Assembly: GCF_003334385.1 (NCBI RefSeq)
Contig: NZ_QOWN01000016.1
DNA from: Escherichia coli
Lineage (GTDB): Bacteria; Pseudomonadota; Gammaproteobacteria; Enterobacterales; Enterobacteriaceae
Strand: one strand, 5' to 3'
DNA: 64,000 bases
How positions within the stretch are numbered: the first letter of the stretch is position 1; each line of letters starts with the position of its first letter. The notes under the pieces are model-generated. The model saw only the letters and a program-made list of their open reading frames with translations, made no database searches and was not told the DNA's origin. The translations under genes and the position numbers were made by a program. Below are positions 14,458 to 28,162 of the stretch, in pieces.

Positions 14458-15585
14458 TTAACGGCGTCTATAGCCTTCCTCTAGCACCGCCTGTGTTCGA
14501 ACGAGTTCATCTGCGAGTCGTTTCTCATCAGGTAGTTGCATCTTATATTCGCTTGCCAGAACGGTGTTAGGCAAACCTGCCAGAGCATAATGCGCTTCTC
14601 CGGCTCCTTTCTCTGCACAGAGAACCAGACCGATGGGCGGATTTTCATCCGGTAGCGTCCAGTGCTCTTTGGCGTAGTTGAGATACATATTCATCTGTCC
14701 GGCATCGCTATAGCTGAATTTGCCCACTTTTAGATCGACGATTAGCAGGCAGCGTAAACGGCGGTGGAAAAACAGCAGATCGACACGAAACCAGTTGTCA
14801 TCAATGCGTAACCTTCGCTGCCGACCAACAAAGGCAAAATCATCCCCAAGTTCCAGCATGAAATCCATCAGGTGGTTGATCAGCGCCTCCTCAAAATCGG
14901 ATTCTGAATATTCATCTTTCAATTCCAGAAATTCGAGCACAAAGGGATCGCGTATCGCCTGTTGCGGAAGAATATGCGTCTCGGCAGGAGCGTGTTGTTG
15001 CAGCATGGCTGATTTGTCATGTGACAGTAGTGTCCGCTCATAAAACTGGGTCGCAATTTGCCGCTCTAGCTGGCGAACAGACCAGCCACAGCGGAGCGTC
15101 TCTTTTTCATAAAAGCTGCGGGCGTCAGCGTTTTTAACGGAAAGTAAACGGACGTAGGTGGACCTGGGCAAGGGGAAAGATTTGGCAGACAGCGTCTGCC
15201 AAATCTTTGCCGATGGGAATTCTGCAGACGGTGTCTGCGGAATTCCCAATGGTGTTAATTCGCCAGACATTGTCTGGCGAATTTCAACATGTTGAAAAAA
15301 GAGGTAAAAAAGCCTCATTTGGCGTAAGTTTTTTGCAGAGAACCCACGCTTATACCTTAGACATAAATCCTTTGATAGTCGCTTGATTAGCTGCGCACCA
15401 TACGCAGCCCTGGCCTCGCCACCTTGTTCAAATTCGACAATTCGTCGGCCAATTTCCTGGTACGTCGCGGTCATTAACGCGTTAACGCTACGTACCGTTT
15501 CCGTCCGGGCGCTATCGACCAGATGAATAATACCGTCGTGGATTTGCTGGTAGCCTGCTGTGGTTCCTTCTGAGAGCGATTCCAT
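14458..15585 (-). CDS. yhcG: DUF1016-family protein with PD-(D/E)xK nuclease-like C-terminal domain
   Basis: 375-aa ORF; C-terminal ...RVDLLFF...LLIVDLKVGK resembles a D...(D/E)xK nuclease core; contains in-frame palindromic repeats. Confidence 0.85.
   Translation of the reverse strand: MESLSEGTTAGYQQIHDGIIHLVDSARTETVRSVNALMTATYQEIGRRIVEFEQGGEARAAYGAQLIKRLSKDLCLRYKRGFSAKNLRQMRLFYLFFQHVEIRQTMSGELTPLGIPQTPSAEFPSAKIWQTLSAKSFPLPRSTYVRLLSVKNADARSFYEKETLRCGWSVRQLERQIATQFYERTLLSHDKSAMLQQHAPAETHILPQQAIRDPFVLEFLELKDEYSESDFEEALINHLMDFMLELGDDFAFVGRQRRLRIDDNWFRVDLLFFHRRLRCLLIVDLKVGKFSYSDAGQMNMYLNYAKEHWTLPDENPPIGLVLCAEKGAGEAHYALAGLPNTVLASEYKMQLPDEKRLADELVRTQAVLEEGYRRR
15180..15283. repeat. three tandem 39-bp units, each with a ~25-33-bp palindrome, in frame within yhcG
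   Basis: ATTTGGCAGACAGCGTCTGCCAAAT (15180-15204), GGGAATTCTGCAGACGGTGTCTGCGGAATTCCC (15215-15247), AATTCGCCAGACATTGTCTGGCGAATT (15257-15283); encode IWQTLSAK / IPQTPSAE / IRQTMSGE on the minus strand. Confidence 0.85.
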
Positions 15586-15769: not shown

Positions 15770-16486
15770 TCACAAGTAGACTACGCTTATCACAGCTTTC
15801 CCATCAAGTTCGATTTTTTCTGAACCGCCTAAATCATTCGCGATAGATGCGCTCACCTGAAGCGGTATAATGGCGTTCGTTACAGGAGTTGGGGTTGTTT
15901 CACCTGGTTTTACAAAGGTGTAATAATAGCTTTGATCGACTGCAAGCGGATAAGCGGTGAGCGTTTGCCATGCTCTTTTTTGCCCTGTTATGACGGCATC
16001 TGCACCTGCTATTGATACAGCTAACGTCTGGCTACCATTGCTGGCACTAATGTTGTTGCTATCAATTAACACGGCATAACTACCGATATTTTTATTATCT
16101 TTTGTTTTCCCTAAGCCGAATAAGCGCGTTGTCTGGCTAATATAACCTCCGCCATTTAAGGTATATTTTACACCACTCTGACCCCCACTATCTTTTCCGG
16201 TGGTCATACTATCCATTCGTGTATCACGAGCGGTAATCGCAATGCTGGTAGCGGATTCGCAAGTTATAGTCATATTAATATTACGTGTTCCAATCTGTGT
16301 GTAGTGCTGCGTTGAAAGTCTATTGACTGAATGACTACCGAAGTTAACAACTCCGCCGTTGCTTAGTATTGGAGTACAAGCTGCAGCTTCCAGAGTCACC
16401 TTAACGTCAATTGATACTCTATCAGCGGCTTGCGCTGACATGGCAAAAAAGGCACTTCCGGCAATCAGTAATTTTACATTGTTCAT
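15770..16486 (-). CDS. yhcF: fimbrial-like protein (DUF1120 family), secreted
   Basis: 238-aa ORF with signal peptide MNNVKLLIAGSAFFAMSAQA; paralogous to GltF; last gene of the chaperone-usher cluster. Confidence 0.8.
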   Translation of the reverse strand: MNNVKLLIAGSAFFAMSAQAADRVSIDVKVTLEAAACTPILSNGGVVNFGSHSVNRLSTQHYTQIGTRNINMTITCESATSIAITARDTRMDSMTTGKDSGGQSGVKYTLNGGGYISQTTRLFGLGKTKDNKNIGSYAVLIDSNNISASNGSQTLAVSIAGADAVITGQKRAWQTLTAYPLAVDQSYYYTFVKPGETTPTPVTNAIIPLQVSASIANDLGGSEKIELDGKAVISVVYL

Positions 16487-17034
16487 TTTGCCTCCACCAG
16501 GACCGTCAGATTGCCTGTAATATCTGTCATGTCGGTTAGTTCCCCTTCATCCTTAAAAGCTGGAGCCATTGTCAGTGTGAGGCTAACGCTTTTACCGCTA
16601 TCAATTACCACTTCTTGACCATTTTGCATAAACACCAGCCAATTATTGGGGGAAGTACTAATTGATGCTGTTCCTGTGCTGCCCGGATTGTCATTTTTGC
16701 CACTGGCTAACGCCAGGTCGAGATTGTTACTACCTGAAAATGCATCGCTGGCGATCAGATTTAATGAACCATTCGGGCCAAATCCAAATCCGTTGTTGGA
16801 AATATTAGCGGTATTCAACTGAACACGAATATGAGCGTCCTGATCGCATTGCATTACCAGCGTGATTGTTCTGTCTGCTAATTGTGTTGTTTTACCCCGG
16901 TCAACTTGGCGCATGGCAGCACTTCGTTTGCCATAGTCGATATTTTGTATGCTACTGGAGATATTACACTCTGCCTGAGCGGCCATGGCGAAGTTCAGCA
17001 GCAGGCATCCTGTTATTATCCGTTTCATTGGCAC
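16483..17034 (-). CDS. yhcE: fimbrial-like secreted protein, apparently intact
   Basis: 183-aa ORF with signal peptide (..LLLNFAMAAQA); overlaps yhcD stop and yhcF start; no IS sequence present. Confidence 0.75.
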   Translation of the reverse strand: MPMKRIITGCLLLNFAMAAQAECNISSSIQNIDYGKRSAAMRQVDRGKTTQLADRTITLVMQCDQDAHIRVQLNTANISNNGFGFGPNGSLNLIASDAFSGSNNLDLALASGKNDNPGSTGTASISTSPNNWLVFMQNGQEVVIDSGKSVSLTLTMAPAFKDEGELTDMTDITGNLTVLVEAK

Positions 17035-19406
17035 TCTCCTGTTGCTGTCTCATAGAACACATCTTTTGGTGCATCTTCTGGGAATGTAAGGTGAATACGG
17101 CATGATTGCTGCTCATCTTTTATATCTAGCACCATGTCCGGTTTGATGTTATTGAGGAATACAACACCGTCATCCACTGATGTTGTCAGATAGTTGCCTT
17201 CACTATCTTCAATCGCAACGCCTCTGGGCAGTTTTTTGCCGTCGGAAAGTGTGATATTGAGTAATGCACGGCGTTGTGTTATCGCACTGAATCCGACTTT
17301 CCCTACTGCACCACGGCCTTGTTTGATCATTTTTGTGCCGTTACCGATATCGACATTTTTTGGCAAGCTGGCGGTATCGATCTCAACTCCTGATGTTCGC
17401 CACGACTGGATTGATGGAATGACGGCATTACCCCGAAAATCTGTCCATACTGGGCCTGCCTGAGATGTAATTCTGACACCTGCAATATTGTTATCCATTT
17501 TTGCGATGGCGAAAGTGTCATTGATAGTCCACGGTGAAAAGGTCACTCCCTGATCATGTACGGCAATACCACCTGACATCGTACCGTTGTAAGTACGGCT
17601 ATCACTGCCGCTTGCTCCTGCGGCAAGGCTGACTTGGGTGTAATGGAGATTGGAACTGATACTGCCGTTCAAGCTCGTTTCACGTTCGTCGTGATCTCGT
17701 TCAGCATTCACATAGTAGGACATCTCATCTGAGACGACTCCCATGACACCAGTACCATAGTGGGTTTTATGATCGTCATGGCGAGTATACAGTGTGGCGG
17801 TGTTTGATCTGCCAAATGGAATACTGATGTTGACGTAGAACAGATCACCATCGTCTTCATTATTTTCTGAAGCACTAAGTTGATGCTGCCAGTTGACGGA
17901 AACCGTGGCGTGTTTGAACGCTTTGTTCCAGTTAATATTAAGGTTGCTTGAGTCATTGTCACCGTCGTAACTATATGTTTTATAGCCACTGATGTTGAAA
18001 CCACCCAGAATGGAGTTAGACCAGTTTAAACCAAGCGCATAAGTGCTTTTAGTCGGATCGGTATAATCATCATCAATCGCTTCAGACAGTTCGCGATAAT
18101 GGCGATCAGATCGAGTGAGGCTGGTTGTTAGCCCAAGTGAAAATGGGAGATTGTAGTTCGCGTCAAGACGATATTTCTGTCCTTGCAGTGAGTCTTTCGT
18201 ATCCTGCGATGTACTAATTTGGCTGCTCACTGTTAAATCGGGCAGGGGAACCAGACTCGACCGGATTGATGCCGCCTGATAATTTTCTGCTACGATAACG
18301 CCGCCGTTCATTGCACTCCAGCGTGTCAGATTCCATCCGCTCGATGCACTAATTACCCAAGGTGATTCGTCATAGTCATCGTCTACCCGCCCTATCGCGA
18401 AGCGATAACCCTGGAAGCTTTCTACATGCTGATTAAACAGGGTGGAGGGAACAATATAGTTGTGCGAACTACCGTCTGTTTCGACAACGGTGACATTAAG
18501 ATCACTATTACCATTGCGAACAGGTACATCAGGGATAGTGAATGCGCCCGCAGGAACCAGAATGGAATGAATTAAAACTCCTTGTTGACGAATCTCGACA
18601 CGAGCCTGAGAGGTGTTGGCTATACCAGTAACTTGCACACCACTGCCGCTGGTTTGCAATGCGTTGTCCGGTGCGATTTCGATACCGTAAATACTGGCTC
18701 CTTCCAACACGCTATTATTGAGGTTAACTTCACCTGCTCGCATGAGTGTTTTAAGATCTGTAAAGGTACGTTGAAGGTAGGTTGACGAGTTCTGGTTACT
18801 GAATGTGCCATTTGTTTGTGTAAGGAACTGATGGCTGCGTAACATCCAGTCATTAATATTAATCCCGCCTTCAAGTGCAGCCTGGGAGTAGTCCGAACTC
18901 CCATTAGAAAATTCTGCACGGCTGCTCATCAGAGAGTAGTTTAGCAGCGCAGCTGTTCCACCAGTTGCTGCGTTTGTGAGATCCAACCCTATGGGAATGA
19001 TCGCCTGTGGTGAAACGATAATATCTAACGCTTCCTGGTTAGGTAATGGTGTGATTGTGGTACCCGGGTAGGACAATATATAGTCGTAACAGCCATTTTT
19101 TTCTTCAGAAGGAATTTTTAAACCGGCTTGTTGCAGAAATGCCTGATCAAGACAAATGTCGCCATTTTCATCAAAGCGCGTAGCAATGTTGCCTTTTTTT
19201 TCGCCATTTACTGATACTATCAGTGAATATTCACCTGGCAAAAAACGGGCTGAACGGGAAAAATAATGCGATATATTAGGATCTACACCTAGTGATTTTA
19301 ATGTTTCCCGATCAAAATCAACAGCGGCAATCTCTATACCATCTGCATTGGCTGGGGGAGAAAAGGCAAAACCAATGGTGTAGGCCAGTAACGTTTTTTT
19401 TAACAT
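17025..19406 (-). CDS. yhcD: fimbrial outer membrane usher protein
   Basis: ORF 17025..19424 (799 aa); likely start at MLKKTLLAYTIGFAFSPPANA (793 aa); usher-sized, between chaperone and subunit genes. Confidence 0.88.
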   Translation of the reverse strand: MLKKTLLAYTIGFAFSPPANADGIEIAAVDFDRETLKSLGVDPNISHYFSRSARFLPGEYSLIVSVNGEKKGNIATRFDENGDICLDQAFLQQAGLKIPSEEKNGCYDYILSYPGTTITPLPNQEALDIIVSPQAIIPIGLDLTNAATGGTAALLNYSLMSSRAEFSNGSSDYSQAALEGGININDWMLRSHQFLTQTNGTFSNQNSSTYLQRTFTDLKTLMRAGEVNLNNSVLEGASIYGIEIAPDNALQTSGSGVQVTGIANTSQARVEIRQQGVLIHSILVPAGAFTIPDVPVRNGNSDLNVTVVETDGSSHNYIVPSTLFNQHVESFQGYRFAIGRVDDDYDESPWVISASSGWNLTRWSAMNGGVIVAENYQAASIRSSLVPLPDLTVSSQISTSQDTKDSLQGQKYRLDANYNLPFSLGLTTSLTRSDRHYRELSEAIDDDYTDPTKSTYALGLNWSNSILGGFNISGYKTYSYDGDNDSSNLNINWNKAFKHATVSVNWQHQLSASENNEDDGDLFYVNISIPFGRSNTATLYTRHDDHKTHYGTGVMGVVSDEMSYYVNAERDHDERETSLNGSISSNLHYTQVSLAAGASGSDSRTYNGTMSGGIAVHDQGVTFSPWTINDTFAIAKMDNNIAGVRITSQAGPVWTDFRGNAVIPSIQSWRTSGVEIDTASLPKNVDIGNGTKMIKQGRGAVGKVGFSAITQRRALLNITLSDGKKLPRGVAIEDSEGNYLTTSVDDGVVFLNNIKPDMVLDIKDEQQSCRIHLTFPEDAPKDVFYETATGECQ

Positions 19407-19426
19407 CCTTGTCGCTCCAGGCAAAG

Positions 19427-20101
19427 TTATTTTAAGTCAGTGACATATTTATTACCGCGATAACCATATCGGCTGGCTGGGTAAAACTCGACTTTTGTAT
19501 CCGTAGCGTTTGTTAATGCAGTAGTTGTACTGGTGTGTGGTAGAAAATAGGTCTTATTTATAGCCCCCGTTTTTCCTGAAGGGAGCGTTTTAAATTGTAA
19601 GGTCATACGAACGACATAATTACTGGGGTTGCTAATCTCAATTTGGTCGCCATTTTTACGCCATTCCAGGAATTTCCAGGTCTCTCGCTCTTCCGGCAGG
19701 GAAGCCGGGTGGATCAGTACAGGTAGATCCTGACGAATTGAAACAGTAACTCTGCTGCTCTTGTCATCTTTTGGTGGAATACCTTCGAACGTTACGCGTT
19801 TCAGCTCTTCTGATTGCAGAGGAACAGTCGCCTGAAGTAAAAATCGAACCTGTTGTACTTGACCGGCTTCAACACGAATAACGGGCTGAGTCGGGATTAA
19901 ACGAATTGATTTATTGCTTTCAGGCAAATCAACAATGGTGGTGTAAAGCAATGAAGGATGATCATCTGTATTCTTAATATTAATACTAGCTTCACCACGC
20001 TTTTCATCAACCAGCAATACTGATGTTTCAGGAACCATCCCTGTGGCTAAGGTATTCATTGATGTTGTTATAAATACAGTGAATGTAATGTGTCTGAGCA
20101 T
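19427..20101 (-). CDS. yhcA: fimbrial periplasmic chaperone (PapD-like)
   Basis: 224-aa ORF with signal peptide; 2 bp upstream of usher gene. Confidence 0.88.
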   Translation of the reverse strand: MLRHITFTVFITTSMNTLATGMVPETSVLLVDEKRGEASINIKNTDDHPSLLYTTIVDLPESNKSIRLIPTQPVIRVEAGQVQQVRFLLQATVPLQSEELKRVTFEGIPPKDDKSSRVTVSIRQDLPVLIHPASLPEERETWKFLEWRKNGDQIEISNPSNYVVRMTLQFKTLPSGKTGAINKTYFLPHTSTTTALTNATDTKVEFYPASRYGYRGNKYVTDLK

Positions 20102-20272
20102 TTAAATTAAAACTCCTGTAATAATGATAAATAACGCAGAAACATATTGTTAATATATGTTATGCACTGTTTGCGATGAGATTGATTAAGACAGACCATG
20201 TCATAGGGCATAATCTGTCCGAGTTATAGCTAACTGGTTAATGCGTAAAAATAAAAACTGTATTACAAGTTC

Positions 20273-21037
20273 TTATAAATACTGAACGCTGATAGTGACG
20301 TTACCATCCAGTTTGATCGTTTCATCAGAACCAAGAATAGTATTGTCATTTACCGCAGCATCAATCAGTAACGGGAAGGTGACCGCTGTAATGGCAACAG
20401 GTGTCAGTTCCCCTGTTTTTGCAACAGAATAACCGCGCTCGATTGCTGAGCAACTTGTCAGCGAGCAGAATGCGCCATTAGATGAGGCTTTCCATGTGGG
20501 GGTCGCTGCTGACCAGTGGTCAGTTTGAATCAGGTCGACAGGAATTTCACCTGTATCGTCCGCCGCGTGAATCCCACCATTAGACCTGTCAATACCAATG
20601 GATGCAGCGCCAATTTTTTGTCCATTAGGCGCAGAACCTAAACCAAAGGCGTTTTTCGTTCCCTTCATATCTACGAGAGTATCATAAGCTTTTTCAATAT
20701 AGGATGTGTCGTTTAACGCTACAATGGTCGACTGACGGTTATCCTTGGAGGTTACAGCAATTAGCGTTGGTGCTGTGCAGGTTATATTTAATGTGCTGTT
20801 TTTGCGGCCCAGTTGAACCAGTTTATTACTTTTACCGGTCGGATTCAGCGCACTGTTATGATGTTTCCCATAGTCAACAATGCCGCCGCCCGTAACAACT
20901 GGGGTACATGCACCAGGGGTATACTCGCCGATGATAGTTAATTCTGTATCAGTTGAATCTGTTGCCATGGCACTGAATGCTGCAACAGAAAGTGCTGCAC
21001 AAATAGCAGCTGTTGTGAGGTTCTTTTTGAAAAACAT
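20273..21037 (-). CDS. gltF: GltF, periplasmic fimbrial-subunit-like protein (DUF1120)
   Basis: 254-aa ORF with signal peptide MFFKKNLTTAAICAALSVAAFSAMA; paralogous to YhcF; first gene of the chaperone-usher cluster. Confidence 0.85.
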   Translation of the reverse strand: MFFKKNLTTAAICAALSVAAFSAMATDSTDTELTIIGEYTPGACTPVVTGGGIVDYGKHHNSALNPTGKSNKLVQLGRKNSTLNITCTAPTLIAVTSKDNRQSTIVALNDTSYIEKAYDTLVDMKGTKNAFGLGSAPNGQKIGAASIGIDRSNGGIHAADDTGEIPVDLIQTDHWSAATPTWKASSNGAFCSLTSCSAIERGYSVAKTGELTPVAITAVTFPLLIDAAVNDNTILGSDETIKLDGNVTISVQYL

Positions 21038-21555
21038 ATGAACATATCCTTAATAACAAATTTATTTTTTAAAATAAAAAGCTGAAGCAGTATATATATC
21101 TGTTTGTGAATGTAAATAAATAACTCGTTCAGAAATAGCCAACTTGCTGGGATGTATTTATTTAATGAATTTTATAGTTACGATCATGTGAATAATAAGG
21201 TGCTGGTGAGGTGGTTTGTGGTGATAATTATTCATTACATGAATGTTTGCGCTGAAAAATAGGAAAATATATAGATAATTAAGGATAATATATTGGTTTT
21301 TTATATTCATATTTTGTATATTAATATCGAGACAATTTACATGGAATGAAAAGACTGAATAGCTTGCAGAATCGGTATTGTCAGAGGTGTTAACAAGTAA
21401 TTGAGACGGATTGTAAATGAGAAATTGCTTGATGTGCTTCACTCATCAGACTTGGTGAACAAAGCACAATTTATTGAAAATTATCCCTATTATAGGAAAG
21501 GTCAAACGCTCATGCCGCATTTGCCAGAAAACAACGCGCACTTCGTCAGTAATTT

Positions 21556-21583
21556 GATTCGCCAGACACAGTCTGGCGAATTC
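21556..21583. repeat. 28-bp near-perfect palindrome (solo copy) immediately 3' of gltD
   Basis: GATTCGCCAGACACAGTCTGGCGAATTC; ends 13 bp before the gltD stop codon at 21597 (i.e. just downstream on the gltD strand). Confidence 0.8.
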
Positions 21584-21596
21584 ATTGTTACCTCGC

Positions 21597-23027
<1,431 letters not shown>

Positions 23028-26000
23028 TTACTGCGCCTGCACGCGCAACTCAGCTGCGCTACGACTACGGTGACCCAGCAGTGCTTTTACATCACTGGAC
23101 TTCGGTTTAACCAGCGCAAATTTAGTGGCGAAGGTTGACCAGTTCGCCAGAATCTCTTCACCGCGCTGAGAGCCGGTATGCTGCACATGCTCGGTGATAA
23201 GACCACGCAGATGCTCTTCATGGATCGCCAGAGCGTCAACGCTTAAGACCTCGACCAGTTCCGGGTTAACGCGTTTGCGGAAATCGCCGCTTTCATCGAG
23301 AACGTAAGCGAAACCGCCGGTCATGCCCGCACCGAAGTTAACGCCGGTTTTACCCAGAATGCAGACGATACCACCCGTCATATATTCACAACCGTTGTCG
23401 CCAATGCCTTCTACCACGGTGATAGCACCGGAGTTACGCACGCCGAAACGTTCACCCGCGCGGCCTGCGGCATACAGACGACCACCGGTCGCGCCATACA
23501 GGCAGGTGTTGCCGATAATGCTTGCTTCATGGCTGCGGAAGGCGGAACCAACCGGAGGACGAATGGCGATTAAGCCGCCCGCCATGCCTTTACCGACATA
23601 GTCGTTGGCATCACCGGTCAGGTACAGTTCCACGCCGCCCGCGTTCCACACGCCGAAGCTCTGGCCTGCGGTGCCGTTGAAGTACGCTTTGATAGGATCG
23701 GCTGCCAGCCCCTGATCGCCGTGCGTCTGGGCGATATAGCCTGAAAGCGACGCGCCGACAGAACGGTCGGTGTTGCGAATATCGAACCAGAAGGTTTTGC
23801 TCTGGCGCTCATCGACAAACGGTTTCGCCTGTTGCAGCAACTGCGCGTTCAGCAGGCCGTTATCAAACGGCGGGTTGTTTTCGGTGCAGTAGAGTGCCTT
23901 ACCTGGATGCGGTTCGGCAGTCTCCAGCAGCTTCGACAGCGCCAGCTTCTGCTGTTTGGCGGTGAAACCGTCCAGCTCTTTCAGCAGGTCGGTGCGACCA
24001 ATCAGATCCACCAGACGTGTTACGCCAAGCTGTGCCATCAGCTCGCGGGTTTCACGGGCGATAAACTCAAAGTAATTCGTCACCTTGAATGGCAGGCCGT
24101 GATAGTGGTTCTTACGCAGTTTGTCATCCTGAGTTGCTACACCCGTTGCGCAGTTGTTCAGATGGCAAATACGTAGATATTTACAGCCGAGCGCCACCAT
24201 CGGGCCAGTGCCGAAGCCGAAGCTTTCTGCGCCGAGAATCGCCGCCTTGATGATATCGACACCCGTTTTCAGGCCGCCATCGACCTGCAAACGGATCTTG
24301 TGACGCAAGCCGTTAGCAACCAGCGCCTGCTGGGTTTCAACAAGCCCCAGCTCCCACGGACAGCCTGCGTATTTCACCGATGAAAGCGGACTTGCGCCGG
24401 TGCCGCCGTCATAGCCTGCGATGGTGATCAAGTCCGCATAAGCTTTTGCCACGCCAGTCGCGATGGTGCCTACTCCCGGTTCGGAAACCAGCTTCACGGA
24501 GATCATCGCTTTCGGGTTAACCTGCTTGAGGTCGAAAATGAGCTGCGCTAAGTCCTCGATAGAGTAGATATCGTGGTGCGGCGGCGGGGAGATCAGCGTC
24601 ACTCCGGGCACCGAATAGCGCAGTTTGGCGATGTAAGGCGTGACTTTATCACCCGGCAACTGACCGCCTTCGCCTGGCTTCGCGCCCTGGGCGACTTTAA
24701 TCTGAATGACGTCGGCATTGACCAGATACGCCGGAGTAACCCCAAAGCGACCGGAAGCCACCTGCTTGATGCGCGACACTTTGTTGGTGCCGTAGCGCGC
24801 CGGGTCTTCGCCGCCTTCACCGGAGTTCGAATTACCGCCGATGCTGTTCATCGCTTCCGCCAGCGCCTCGTGGGCTTCCGGGCTTAACGCGCCGATAGAC
24901 ATCGCGGCGGTATCAAAGCGTTTAAACAGTTCGCTTGCCGGTTCAACATCAGCAATGTTGACCGCGTTTTCACCCGGCGTAATTGCCAGCAGATCGCGCA
25001 GCGTGGTTGCCGGACGCTCATTAACCAGCTTCGCGTATTCCTGATAGTCGCTGTACTCGCCGCTTTGTACCGCTTGTTGCAGCGTGCGCACCACGTCCGG
25101 GTTGTAGGCGTGGTATTCGCCGCCGTGGACGTATTTCAGCAGACCGCCCTGGCTGATGGGCTTACGCGCCAGCCAGGCACGTTTCGACAGATTCAGCAGA
25201 TCCTGCTGGAAGTCTTCAAAGCTTGCTCCACCAATGCGGCTGACCGCCCCCTGGAAGCACAGGCCCACTACATCATCGTGTAGACCGACCGCTTCAAACA
25301 GTTTCGAGCAGCGGTAAGAGGCGATGGTGGAGATGCCCATTTTGGACATGATTTTGTACAAGCCTTTGTTGATGCCGTTACGGTAGTTGAGCATCACGGT
25401 ACGATAATCTTTGGCAATCGCATGGGTGTCTACCAGGCGGCCCAGCGTTTCATAGGCAAGGTATGGATAAATAGCCGTCGCGCCGAAGCCCAGCAACACG
25501 GCGAAGTGGTGCGGATCGCGGGCGCTGGCGGTTTCGACGATGATGTTGGCATCGCAACGCAGGCTTTGATCGACCAGACGGGTCTGGATCGCGCCAACCG
25601 CCATCGGGGCTGGAACCGGCAGGCGATCTTTAGCGATATTCCGGTCGGAGAGCACCAGCAGCACGGTGCCGCTACGTACCATTTTTTCGGCTTTGTCGCA
25701 CAGCTCTTTGACTGTCGCTTCGAGCGTGGTTTTAGTGACGTCAAAGGTGATATCCAGCGTATCTGCGCGGTAGTGCTCCTCTTTCATCGTCGTGAGCTGT
25801 TTGAAATCGGAGTAGAGCAGAATCGGCGATTTAAAGCTTAAACGGTGCGCCTGGCCCTCTGCTTCGCAAAAGACGTTCATTTCACGACCGATACTGGTGG
25901 CGAGCGACATAACATGCGCTTCACGCAGCGGGTCGATTGGCGGGTTAGTCACCTGGGCAAACTGCTGGCGGAAGTAGTCGTAAATAATGCGCGGCTGACT

Positions 26001-27488
26001 GGAGAGCACGGCGAATGGGGTATCATCGCCCATCGAACCGACCGCTTCCTGACCGTTTTCGCCCAGTACGCGAATTACGGAGTCCAGCTCTTCCGCGCTG
26101 TAGTTAAACTGTTTCTGGTAGCTGGCAAGCGTGTCGTCGTCCAGTTCGCGGCTACCCACTTCTTCATCGGGCAGATCTTCAAACGGTACCAGTCGGCGGA
26201 CGTTTTTCTCCATCCACTCTTTATATGGATGGCGGCTTTTCAGATCGTCATCGGTTTCTGCCGAGTGCAGAATACGCCCACTGCGGGTGTCGATAACCAT
26301 CAGTTCGCCTGGCCCGACGCGGCCTTTTTCGACCACTTCGTCAGGCTGGTAATCCCAGATACCGACTTCAGAGGCGCAGGTGATGAGCTTATCTTTGGTG
26401 ATGACGTAGCGCGCCGGACGCAGACCGTTACGGTCGAGGTTACAGGCGGCAAAACGACCGTCGGACATCACGATGCCCGCCGGGCCATCCCACGGCTCCA
26501 TATGCATGGAGTTAAAGTCAAAGAAGGCACGCAGTTCCGGGTCCATATCCGGGTTGTTCTGCCAGGCGGGTGGTACTAATAGACGCATGGCGCGGATGAT
26601 ATCCATCCCGCCTGCCAGCAGCAGTTCCAGCATGTTATCCATCGAACTGGAGTCAGAGCCGGTTTCGTTGACGAACGGTGCGGCGTCGTGCAGGTCAGGG
26701 ATAAGCGGTGTCTGGAATTTATAAGTACGCGCACGCGCCCATTGGCGGTTACCGGTGATGGTGTTGATTTCACCGTTATGCGCCAGATAGCGGAACGGTT
26801 GCGCCAGCGGCCAGCGCGGTACGGTGTTAGTGGAGAAGCGCTGGTGGAACAGGCAAATGGCCGATTCCAGACGCAGGTCCGCAAGATCCAGATAAAAGCG
26901 CGGCAGATCCGTCGGCATACACAGACCTTTATAGATGTTCACCAGATTCGACAGGCTACAGACGTAGAAGTCTTTGTCGGCTTCGAGACGCTTTTCAATG
27001 CGGCGGCGGGCGATAAACAGACGGCGCTCCATATCGCGTGGACGCCAGCCTGCCGGGGCGTTCACAAAAATTTGCTCAATGCGTGGCAGAGAGGAGAGGG
27101 CGATTTCACCCAGCACGCCTTCGTTAGTGGGGACATCACGCCAGCCCACAATCGACAAGGTTTCGCGTTGCAGTTCTTCTTCAACGATGCGGCGTGCGGC
27201 AGCGGCGAGTTCAGGATCTTTATTCAGGAAGAGCATCCCGACAGCGTAGTTTTTTGCTAAACGCCAGCCGCGCTCCTGCGCAACGATGCGAAAAAAGCGA
27301 TCCGGTTTTTGTAACAGCAAGCCGCAACCGTCGCCGGTTTTACCATCGGCGAGAATCGCGCCACGGTGCTGCATGCGGGCCAGTGCGTGTATTGCAGTAC
27401 GCACTACCTTGTGGCTAGGTTCGCCTTCTATGTGGGCGATCAGGCCGAAACCACAGTTATCCCTCTCAAGGGATTTATCGTACAACAT
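23028..27488 (-). CDS. gltB: glutamate synthase (NADPH) large subunit
   Basis: ORF extends to 27596, but GGAGG RBS plus ATG at 27488 gives [16 protein letters not shown]... with the Ntn-hydrolase Cys after a short propeptide; 1486 aa. Confidence 0.95.
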
Positions 27489-28162
27489 ATCGTGAACCTC
27501 CCCCAGGCTCTGCGGGAACCCCACTTCCGAACCGCTGCGCACGGGCACAGAAAGAGCGTGGCGACGGGGTTTGCGTGTCATACGCGCGCCTCGCATTCGC
27601 CCCCTTGTTGTCCTTTTCGCATCGGTTAATACGGTGAAGAGGGGATCTCAATTACTGCATAAATATGATGAGCAGGCTGCTCATCCAGAAAGCTTCCAGC
27701 GGATTTCCAACTTATCGGGAAAGCTGATACAGGTCAAATGGCAAGCTTATTGGTACAGAAATGTGCTTTAGCGCAAAATTCTTTATTAAATGACTGAAAT
27801 TAAAATGGATTTTATCTTTAAGGCTAAAAGGGAAGTCGTTAGAGAAACAGTCAATTCCTGACTGTCATAAAGGTGTGTTAACCCTTATCCTGCCTTGAAC
27901 TGACGACAAAACCAGCATTTTATACTGCCTTAATTGGTAATGACGTTTCATGCTACTGTTTTTGCCTAAAATCCATCAGGAGATAAAAAAATCTGACACA
28001 AGATAAGCAAAAGTGATTTATGTGATTATGCATGAAATTTCGGTAATTTTGATTGATTATGCAGTTGATAAAAGCAGGCCGGGACGATTGATCCAGGTCA
28101 TCGCCGAATTGAGCTAAAAATGGCAGGCTTTGGCCTCTTTTCAAGGCGCGGTCTATCAGATT

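Follow-up and report, generated by a model that had tools for sequence, protein, structure and literature searches.

Which of its two neighbours owns the long AT-rich interval between gltD and gltF in Escherichia coli, and what, if anything, does this interval do? The gene order by itself allows the gap to be read either as a spacer trailing the glutamate synthase genes gltB and gltD or as the upstream region of the genes that follow. We addressed the question for a stretch of 64,000 nucleotides of an E. coli contig, hereafter the window, in the coordinates of which all positions are given unless stated otherwise. A preliminary description of the locus had presented the gap as a long, non-coding, strongly AT-rich region upstream of a fimbrial operon, resembling H-NS-silenced promoters and possibly holding phase-variation or other regulatory sites.

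Extent and composition of the gap

Read as reverse complements, 21035-21037 is the gltF ATG and 21597-21599 the gltD TAA; the gap is therefore exactly 21038-21596, 559 bp, as originally delimited (Table 1). Its length and AT-richness are real, with a GC content of 0.320 against 0.508 for the 64-kb window, and the two AT runs singled out beforehand are both present (21093-21107 and 21299-21329). Equally low GC is found in just 0.23% of the 559-bp windows along the 64 kb, every one of which overlaps the gap site, and the lowest-GC stretch of the entire 64 kb is overlapped by the gap. The bias is graded, with GC of 0.21-0.33 over 21038-21337, 0.37-0.39 over 21338-21537 and 0.475 over the last 59 bp, on the gltD side. 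The gap had been contrasted with surrounding core genes; the contrast holds for the window at large but has to be qualified on one side, where gltF, with a GC content of 0.455, is an accessory rather than a core gene.

The RefSeq annotation of MG1655 shows no feature over the gap, and an Rfam scan of 19500-23000 at E<=1 yielded no match. The folding of 21390-21500 was the same as that of shuffles, and the hairpin next to gltD is the only structure in the gap that is stable beyond shuffles. The distal part of the gap (21331-21556) could not be aligned with other Escherichia alleles, and a distant blastn search of plasmids gave no match to it. The single open reading frame of note, 94 codons long with a product rich in Ile, Asn and Lys, does exist and had been dismissed as AT-driven, a judgement that we share: its frame is kept in no other allele, no open reading frame of similar length or position is found in the diverged alleles, it has no NCBIfam match and is unannotated in RefSeq and in K-12, and its composition is what AT-rich DNA yields. 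By these comparisons, it is an accident of composition.

Within E. coli, the gap is nearly invariant: 16 of the 20 sampled full-length records are 100% identical, and one more differs solely by an IS1 insertion. Among other strains, three independent IS1 events in the gap were noted, at 21100-21108, ~21431 and ~21504: an insertion within the spacer of the predicted promoter in strain CFS3246, an IS1-bounded inversion in strain Res13-Lact-PEB14-36 and an IS1-mediated deletion extending from the gap into yhcG in strain YZ22PE244.

On its other side, the gap abuts an operon of the expected kind, being non-coding and directly 5' of the first gene of a chaperone-usher operon. This islet, gltF-yhcADEF, has an overall GC content of 0.43 and is known in the literature as 'yhc', the only chaperone-usher locus of the beta class in E. 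coli and one of the 12 chaperone-usher operons counted in MG1655. It is described as confined to phylogroup A (PMC5216030), with IS5 interrupting it in K-12 and intact copies in some ETEC strains. The gene that carries IS5 in MG1655 is yhcE, which is intact in the window; the window is thus not MG1655, for all that the gap is the same in both. Because of this interruption in K-12, yhc has mostly been omitted from functional work. The spacer between gltF and yhcA (20102-20272; 171 bp, GC 0.30) is likewise AT-rich, and an IS5 insertion in it was seen in a laboratory-evolution study.

Table 1. Features of the gltB-yhcG region and of related loci (window coordinates unless a locus is named)
Feature	Position	Strand	Remarks
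gltB	23028-27596	-	
gltD	21597-23015	-	
gltD-gltF gap	21038-21596	-	559 bp, GC 0.320; 100% identical to MG1655 3,360,617-3,361,175
gltD 3' trailer	21557-21596	-	40 bp, common to B2-type strains
Perfect 11-bp-stem hairpin in gltD trailer	21557-21581		fold z = -3.1, no U-tract
Distal part of gap	21331-21556	-	226 bp, GC about 0.38; specific to the E. coli allele
94-codon ORF, judged non-coding	21158-21442	-	GTG start, 94 aa
Proximal AT-rich core	21038-21330	-	GC about 0.25; alignable with diverged Escherichia alleles, 46-56% identity
Conserved 12-mer TTTTCCTATTTT	21256-21267	-	candidate regulator site
Palindrome ATTCAT-N3-ATGAAT	21230-21244	-	candidate operator
C-rich, G-poor stretch (sense RNA)	21148-21225	-	23 C, 3 G
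Sigma-70-like promoter (predicted)	21089-21116	-	TTTACA-16-TATACT; from conservation and position
-35 TTTACA	21116-21111	-	
-10 TATACT	21094-21089	-	16-bp spacer from -35
9-bp target duplication of IS1A insertion, strain CFS3246	21100-21108	.	inside predicted promoter spacer
Shine-Dalgarno AAGGA	21047-21051	-	9 nt before gltF ATG
Operon gltF, yhcA, yhcD, yhcE, yhcF	15770-21037	-	downstream of gap; GC 0.42-0.46
gltF (DUF1120 subunit)	20273-21037	-	GC 0.455
yhcA (fimbrial chaperone)	19427-20101	-	NCBIfam PRK09918, 320 bits, above cut-off
yhcD (usher)	17025-19424	-	NCBIfam PRK15304, 1271 bits, above cut-off
yhcE	16483-17034	-	
yhcF (DUF1120)	15770-16486	-	
yhcG (DUF1016/PDDEXK)	14458-15585	-	
Inverted homologous operons	L009 7493-15126; L010 8453-14130; L011		DUF1120-chaperone-usher-YhcE-DUF1120 between sspB and gltD

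Distribution in Escherichia coli and ownership of the gap

The region downstream of gltD varies among the 5426 complete E. coli genomes surveyed. In the K-12 type, which accounts for about 1149 of these genomes (about 21%), the full 559-bp gap is present at an identity of at least 99.4% and is followed by gltF-yhcADEF. In the B2 type, exemplified by ATCC 25922, UTI89 and Nissle, gltD leads directly into nanQ, and the match to the gap is confined to the last 37-42 bp (21555/21557-21596; about 1090 of 5426 genomes). The remaining genomes, of the Sakai type, carry unrelated sequence from the gltD stop on, and then yhcG. In about 79% of the complete E. coli genomes, gltBD is not accompanied by gltF. 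The gene beyond the operon, yhcG, is itself variable, being present in the K-12 and Sakai types, absent from B2-type strains and cut down to a fragment in other Escherichia alleles.

This distribution divides the gap. The last 40 bp, hairpin included, are common to strains that lack the operon and are therefore the core gltD trailer, whereas the remaining ~520 bp are present or absent together with the fimbrial genes. Judged by presence and absence, those ~520 bp are assignable to the gltF-yhcADEF islet and the 40 bp to the core gltBD unit. The initial view of the whole gap as a single AT-rich element thus stands for the ~520 bp but not for the 40 bp nearest gltD.

Diverged alleles in other lineages and genera

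Relatives of GltF, at 78%, 61%, 60%, 54%, 49% and 48% identity, were obtained by protein search followed by contig look-up; a scan of genome contigs for GltF confirmed no relative. In four Escherichia alleles (L004-L008), the operon occupies the same place, between gltD and nanQ. The gltD genes of these loci are 92-94% identical in nucleotides to that of the window, and GltB and GltD are 97-99% identical as proteins, against just 58-86% for the fimbrial proteins. When two of these alleles (L004 and L005) were compared by megablast with the complete E. coli genomes, gltD was the sole match; they are therefore alleles of other Escherichia lineages, not variants segregating within E. coli.

In Kluyvera (L009) and Enterobacter mori (L010 and L011), where GltD is 94% identical to that of the window, the homologous operon is inverted, lying after sspB and running towards gltD. 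Ahead of the chaperone gene, Kluyvera has three DUF1120 genes in tandem. In all nine related loci examined, a gap of 342-548 bp with a GC content of 0.26-0.32 lies upstream of the operon, in loci with GC of 0.48-0.53 overall, and it persists whatever the upstream neighbour or orientation, down to 48% GltF identity. An AT-rich gap before the first subunit gene in every allele is thus a conserved attribute of the operon, independent of gltD. Of all the evidence gathered here, this conserved leader argues most strongly that the gap would be the operon's own control region.

Predicted promoter and conserved blocks

The suggestion that the gap contains regulatory sites gains substance from the same comparison, in which Escherichia alleles share a promoter-like element and a block farther upstream. 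The putative sigma-70 promoter would place the transcription start near 21082, with a 5' UTR of about 45 nt. Its hexamers are conserved at 11-12 of 12 positions in L005 and L008, the spacer at only 8 of 16. The -10 element reads TATACT in L008 and TACACT in L005-L007, the distance between the hexamers is unchanged in L005-L008, and ATTTATTTACA (21121-21111), which contains the -35 TTTACA, is the same in the window as in L005 and L008. When promoter candidates were scored with a composition-corrected matrix, every allele had one among its top three that ends 51-77 nt upstream of the ATG; this ATG-proximal candidate has the top rank in five of the seven alleles, is second for the window and third for Kluyvera. 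A scan of the gap with the promoter consensus gave 2 matches against 3.3 expected in shuffles and hence no excess, so that the promoter call is drawn from conservation and position. RpoD genomic SELEX reports no peak with gltF as a flanking gene, and gltF is unmentioned in PMC3946193. The predicted 5' UTR folds no differently from shuffles. The Shine-Dalgarno sequence is kept as AAGGA in the four Escherichia alleles and takes the form AGGGA in the related locus L012.

Farther upstream, the 12-mer TTTTCCTATTTT is identical in the window, L005 and L008, lying 149-150 nt upstream of the -35 element in all three lineages; L012 has it as well, and L004 has a copy with one mismatch. The ATTC-N7-GAAT core of the neighbouring palindrome is present in full in L008 and as one half in L005 and L004. 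Both are candidate sites for a regulator.

Possible silencing by H-NS, and other regulators

The AT content of the gap is far above average (about 0.25 GC over 21038-21337, compared with 0.43 for the islet and 0.508 for the window), and the locus has an accessory distribution, occurring in about 21% of the complete E. coli genomes. Composition and distribution both fit an H-NS-silenced locus, and we infer that H-NS probably occupies the gap and silences it. Table 1 of PMC10294691, citing Kahramanoglou 2011, assigns a PhoB site at 3,362,763 (yhcA/yhcD) to a region bound by H-NS; this site is within the operon, 1.6 kb downstream of the gap. The H-NS nucleation motif TCGATAAATT is not enriched: 63.5 matches are expected in the window and 72 occur, two of them in the gap, a count so close to expectation that the scan is uninformative. 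The yhc literature that we searched contained no report of H-NS dependence or promoter mapping and nothing on gltF expression in hns mutants. From the expression literature, RNA-seq counts for gltF are low (about 350-640), and in an rpoZ mutant both RNA polymerase and transcript increase at yhcD, alongside prophage and other AT-rich genes.

Among other regulators, over-expressed CsiR gives a ChIP-seq peak at U00096.2 3,358,941, 257 bp upstream of the gltF ATG (PMC5217608). The peak maps to ~21294, in the AT-rich core; proteins, then, do bind the gap in vivo. Upon CsiR induction, gltF rose 2.5-fold and was listed with the cryptic fimbrial genes yehD and yfcV (PMC5217608). No IHF consensus occurs in the gap, and its one match to the Lrp consensus (21088-21102, two mismatches), which overlaps the -10 element, is not conserved. 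The Lrp scan has a positive control in the gltB-yhcC gap upstream of gltB, where a palindromic match with one mismatch (27913-27927) fits the known Lrp-dependent activation of gltB.

A probable control region of the fimbrial operon and the alternatives

Taken together, these observations lead us to a reading to which we attach a probability of roughly 70%: the ~520 bp would be the own promoter and regulatory region of gltF-yhcADEF, with a predicted sigma-70 start and, by inference, silencing by H-NS. Transcription of gltF would begin about 45 nt before the ATG, from the predicted promoter (21116-21089); the candidate regulator sites would lie in the ~290-bp core next to gltF, with about 25% GC; and H-NS would coat this AT-rich core, keeping the operon silent under laboratory conditions, as with other cryptic fimbrial operons.

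The main alternative takes the gap for an intercistronic spacer of gltBDF, in which case gltF would owe most of its expression to read-through from the gltB promoter, which Lrp activates. The three genes are indeed co-directional, regulon lists in the literature still group gltF with gltBD as an Lrp target, and the Lrp consensus scan does recover a site upstream of gltB. Moreover, the hairpin after gltD has no U-tract and hence is not a canonical intrinsic terminator, so that some read-through from gltBD is possible. Against this, gltBD dispenses with gltF in about four of every five E. coli genomes, the homologous operon of Kluyvera and Enterobacter runs towards gltD, the AT-rich leader is conserved independently of gltD, and gltF encodes a subunit of the fimbrial type, with the genes for its own chaperone and usher behind it. 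Reportedly, gltF also has no role in nitrogen regulation. A further obstacle may be the length and composition of the untranslated spacer itself, 559 nt with a C-rich, G-poor stretch that makes it a likely Rho substrate. Resembling a Rho utilisation site, 21148-21225 is the most C-over-G-skewed 78-mer on either strand of the window, and so extreme a skew makes Rho-dependent termination plausible; given that the stretch is not conserved in other alleles, however, such termination is put forward only as conjecture. On balance, we regard expression of gltF mainly by read-through as unlikely.

A more specific extension of the preferred reading, namely that the ~520 bp are the control region of the fimbrial operon, can be formulated from the same elements. 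The conserved block TTTTCCTATTTT and ATTC-N7-GAAT, about 115-150 nt upstream of the -35 element, could form the operator of an anti-silencer or activator specific to Escherichia beta-class fimbriae, and the C-rich stretch (21225-21148), specific to E. coli, could insulate the fimbrial operon, in a Rho-dependent way, from the strongly expressed gltBD genes. We offer this proposal tentatively, as a speculation that may well turn out to be wrong.

Rather improbable is the notion that everything beyond a minimal promoter is functionless filler at the islet junction, AT-rich by mutational bias alone. The distal 226 bp are allele-specific and unalignable, and IS1 insertions, an inversion and a deletion have been tolerated in the gap, all of which would be expected of filler; yet the length and AT-richness of the gap are kept down to 48% GltF identity and in a different orientation, and specific blocks are conserved at fixed spacing.

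That the gap is a phase-variation switch, whether by fimS-like inversion, by a pap-like Dam/Lrp mechanism or by slipped-strand repeats, is very improbable, and this part of the preliminary description is largely refuted. What could be cited in its favour is an imperfect inverted repeat (24 nt, 79%) at 21045-21068 and 21264-21287 that brackets the predicted promoter and includes a perfect 10-bp core (TATCCTTAAT/ATTAAGGATA), together with a short (AT)4 run at the -10 element and the one Lrp-like match overlapping it. However, about 0.5 perfect 10-bp inverted repeats are expected by chance in 559 bp of this composition, by our estimate; the 24-nt repeat is at chance level and absent from other alleles. 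There is one GATC in the gap (21182) and none or one in every other allele, no recombinase gene is annotated between arcB and nanK, and no papI or papB gene is found nearby. Nor does the population of sequences speak for switching: the gap is nearly invariant across sampled records, and in the 2239 matching records it has 2241 placements, with a second place in just 2 of the 2239. The one second placement examined is an IS1-bounded rearrangement, so that internal inversion is essentially unseen in about 1149 genomes.

Just as remote is the idea that the gap has a product of its own, for although an open frame of 94 codons exists and the sense strand would be transcribed given read-through from gltBD, that frame has no NCBIfam match, annotation or counterpart in the diverged alleles, and nothing suggests a small RNA in a gap with no Rfam match at E<=1 and no structure beyond shuffles besides the gltD hairpin.

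Implications and comparison with known systems

These findings are of use chiefly for annotation, where gltF is to be separated from glutamate synthase. The historical 'gltBDF operon' that survives in regulon lists consists of the same three co-directional genes, but both distribution and orientation place gltF in the fimbrial module instead, and because gltF and its gap belong to this accessory module, there is good reason not to regard 'gltBDF' as a single functional operon. In addition, many phylogroup A and ETEC strains have the uncharacterised yhc fimbriae of the beta class intact, and work aimed at activating these can start from the coordinates of the predicted promoter, the conserved blocks and the C-rich stretch.

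Like fimS of the type 1 fimbriae, the gap is AT-rich, precedes a fimbrial subunit gene and bears a promoter, here a predicted one bracketed by a weak inverted repeat; it differs in that recombinase genes of the fimB/fimE type are missing, the repeat is unconserved and the inverted allele is unseen in about 1149 genomes. The resemblance to the pap-type region consists in length, a probable regulatory role, the position ahead of a fimbrial operon and one Lrp-like match, whereas pap is characterised by two GATC sites, spaced by about 100 bp and located in Lrp sites, and by papI/papB-type regulators; neither this GATC pair nor such regulators are present here. The closest likeness appears to be to the cryptic chaperone-usher operons of K-12, which have a long AT-rich non-coding region before the major-subunit gene and are poorly expressed, and among which yad, yeh, ycb/elf, sfm, yra, ybg and yfc are reportedly repressed by H-NS. 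From these, yhc differs as the only beta-class member; in other respects, the gap is an ordinary example of a well-known kind, with no new mechanism.
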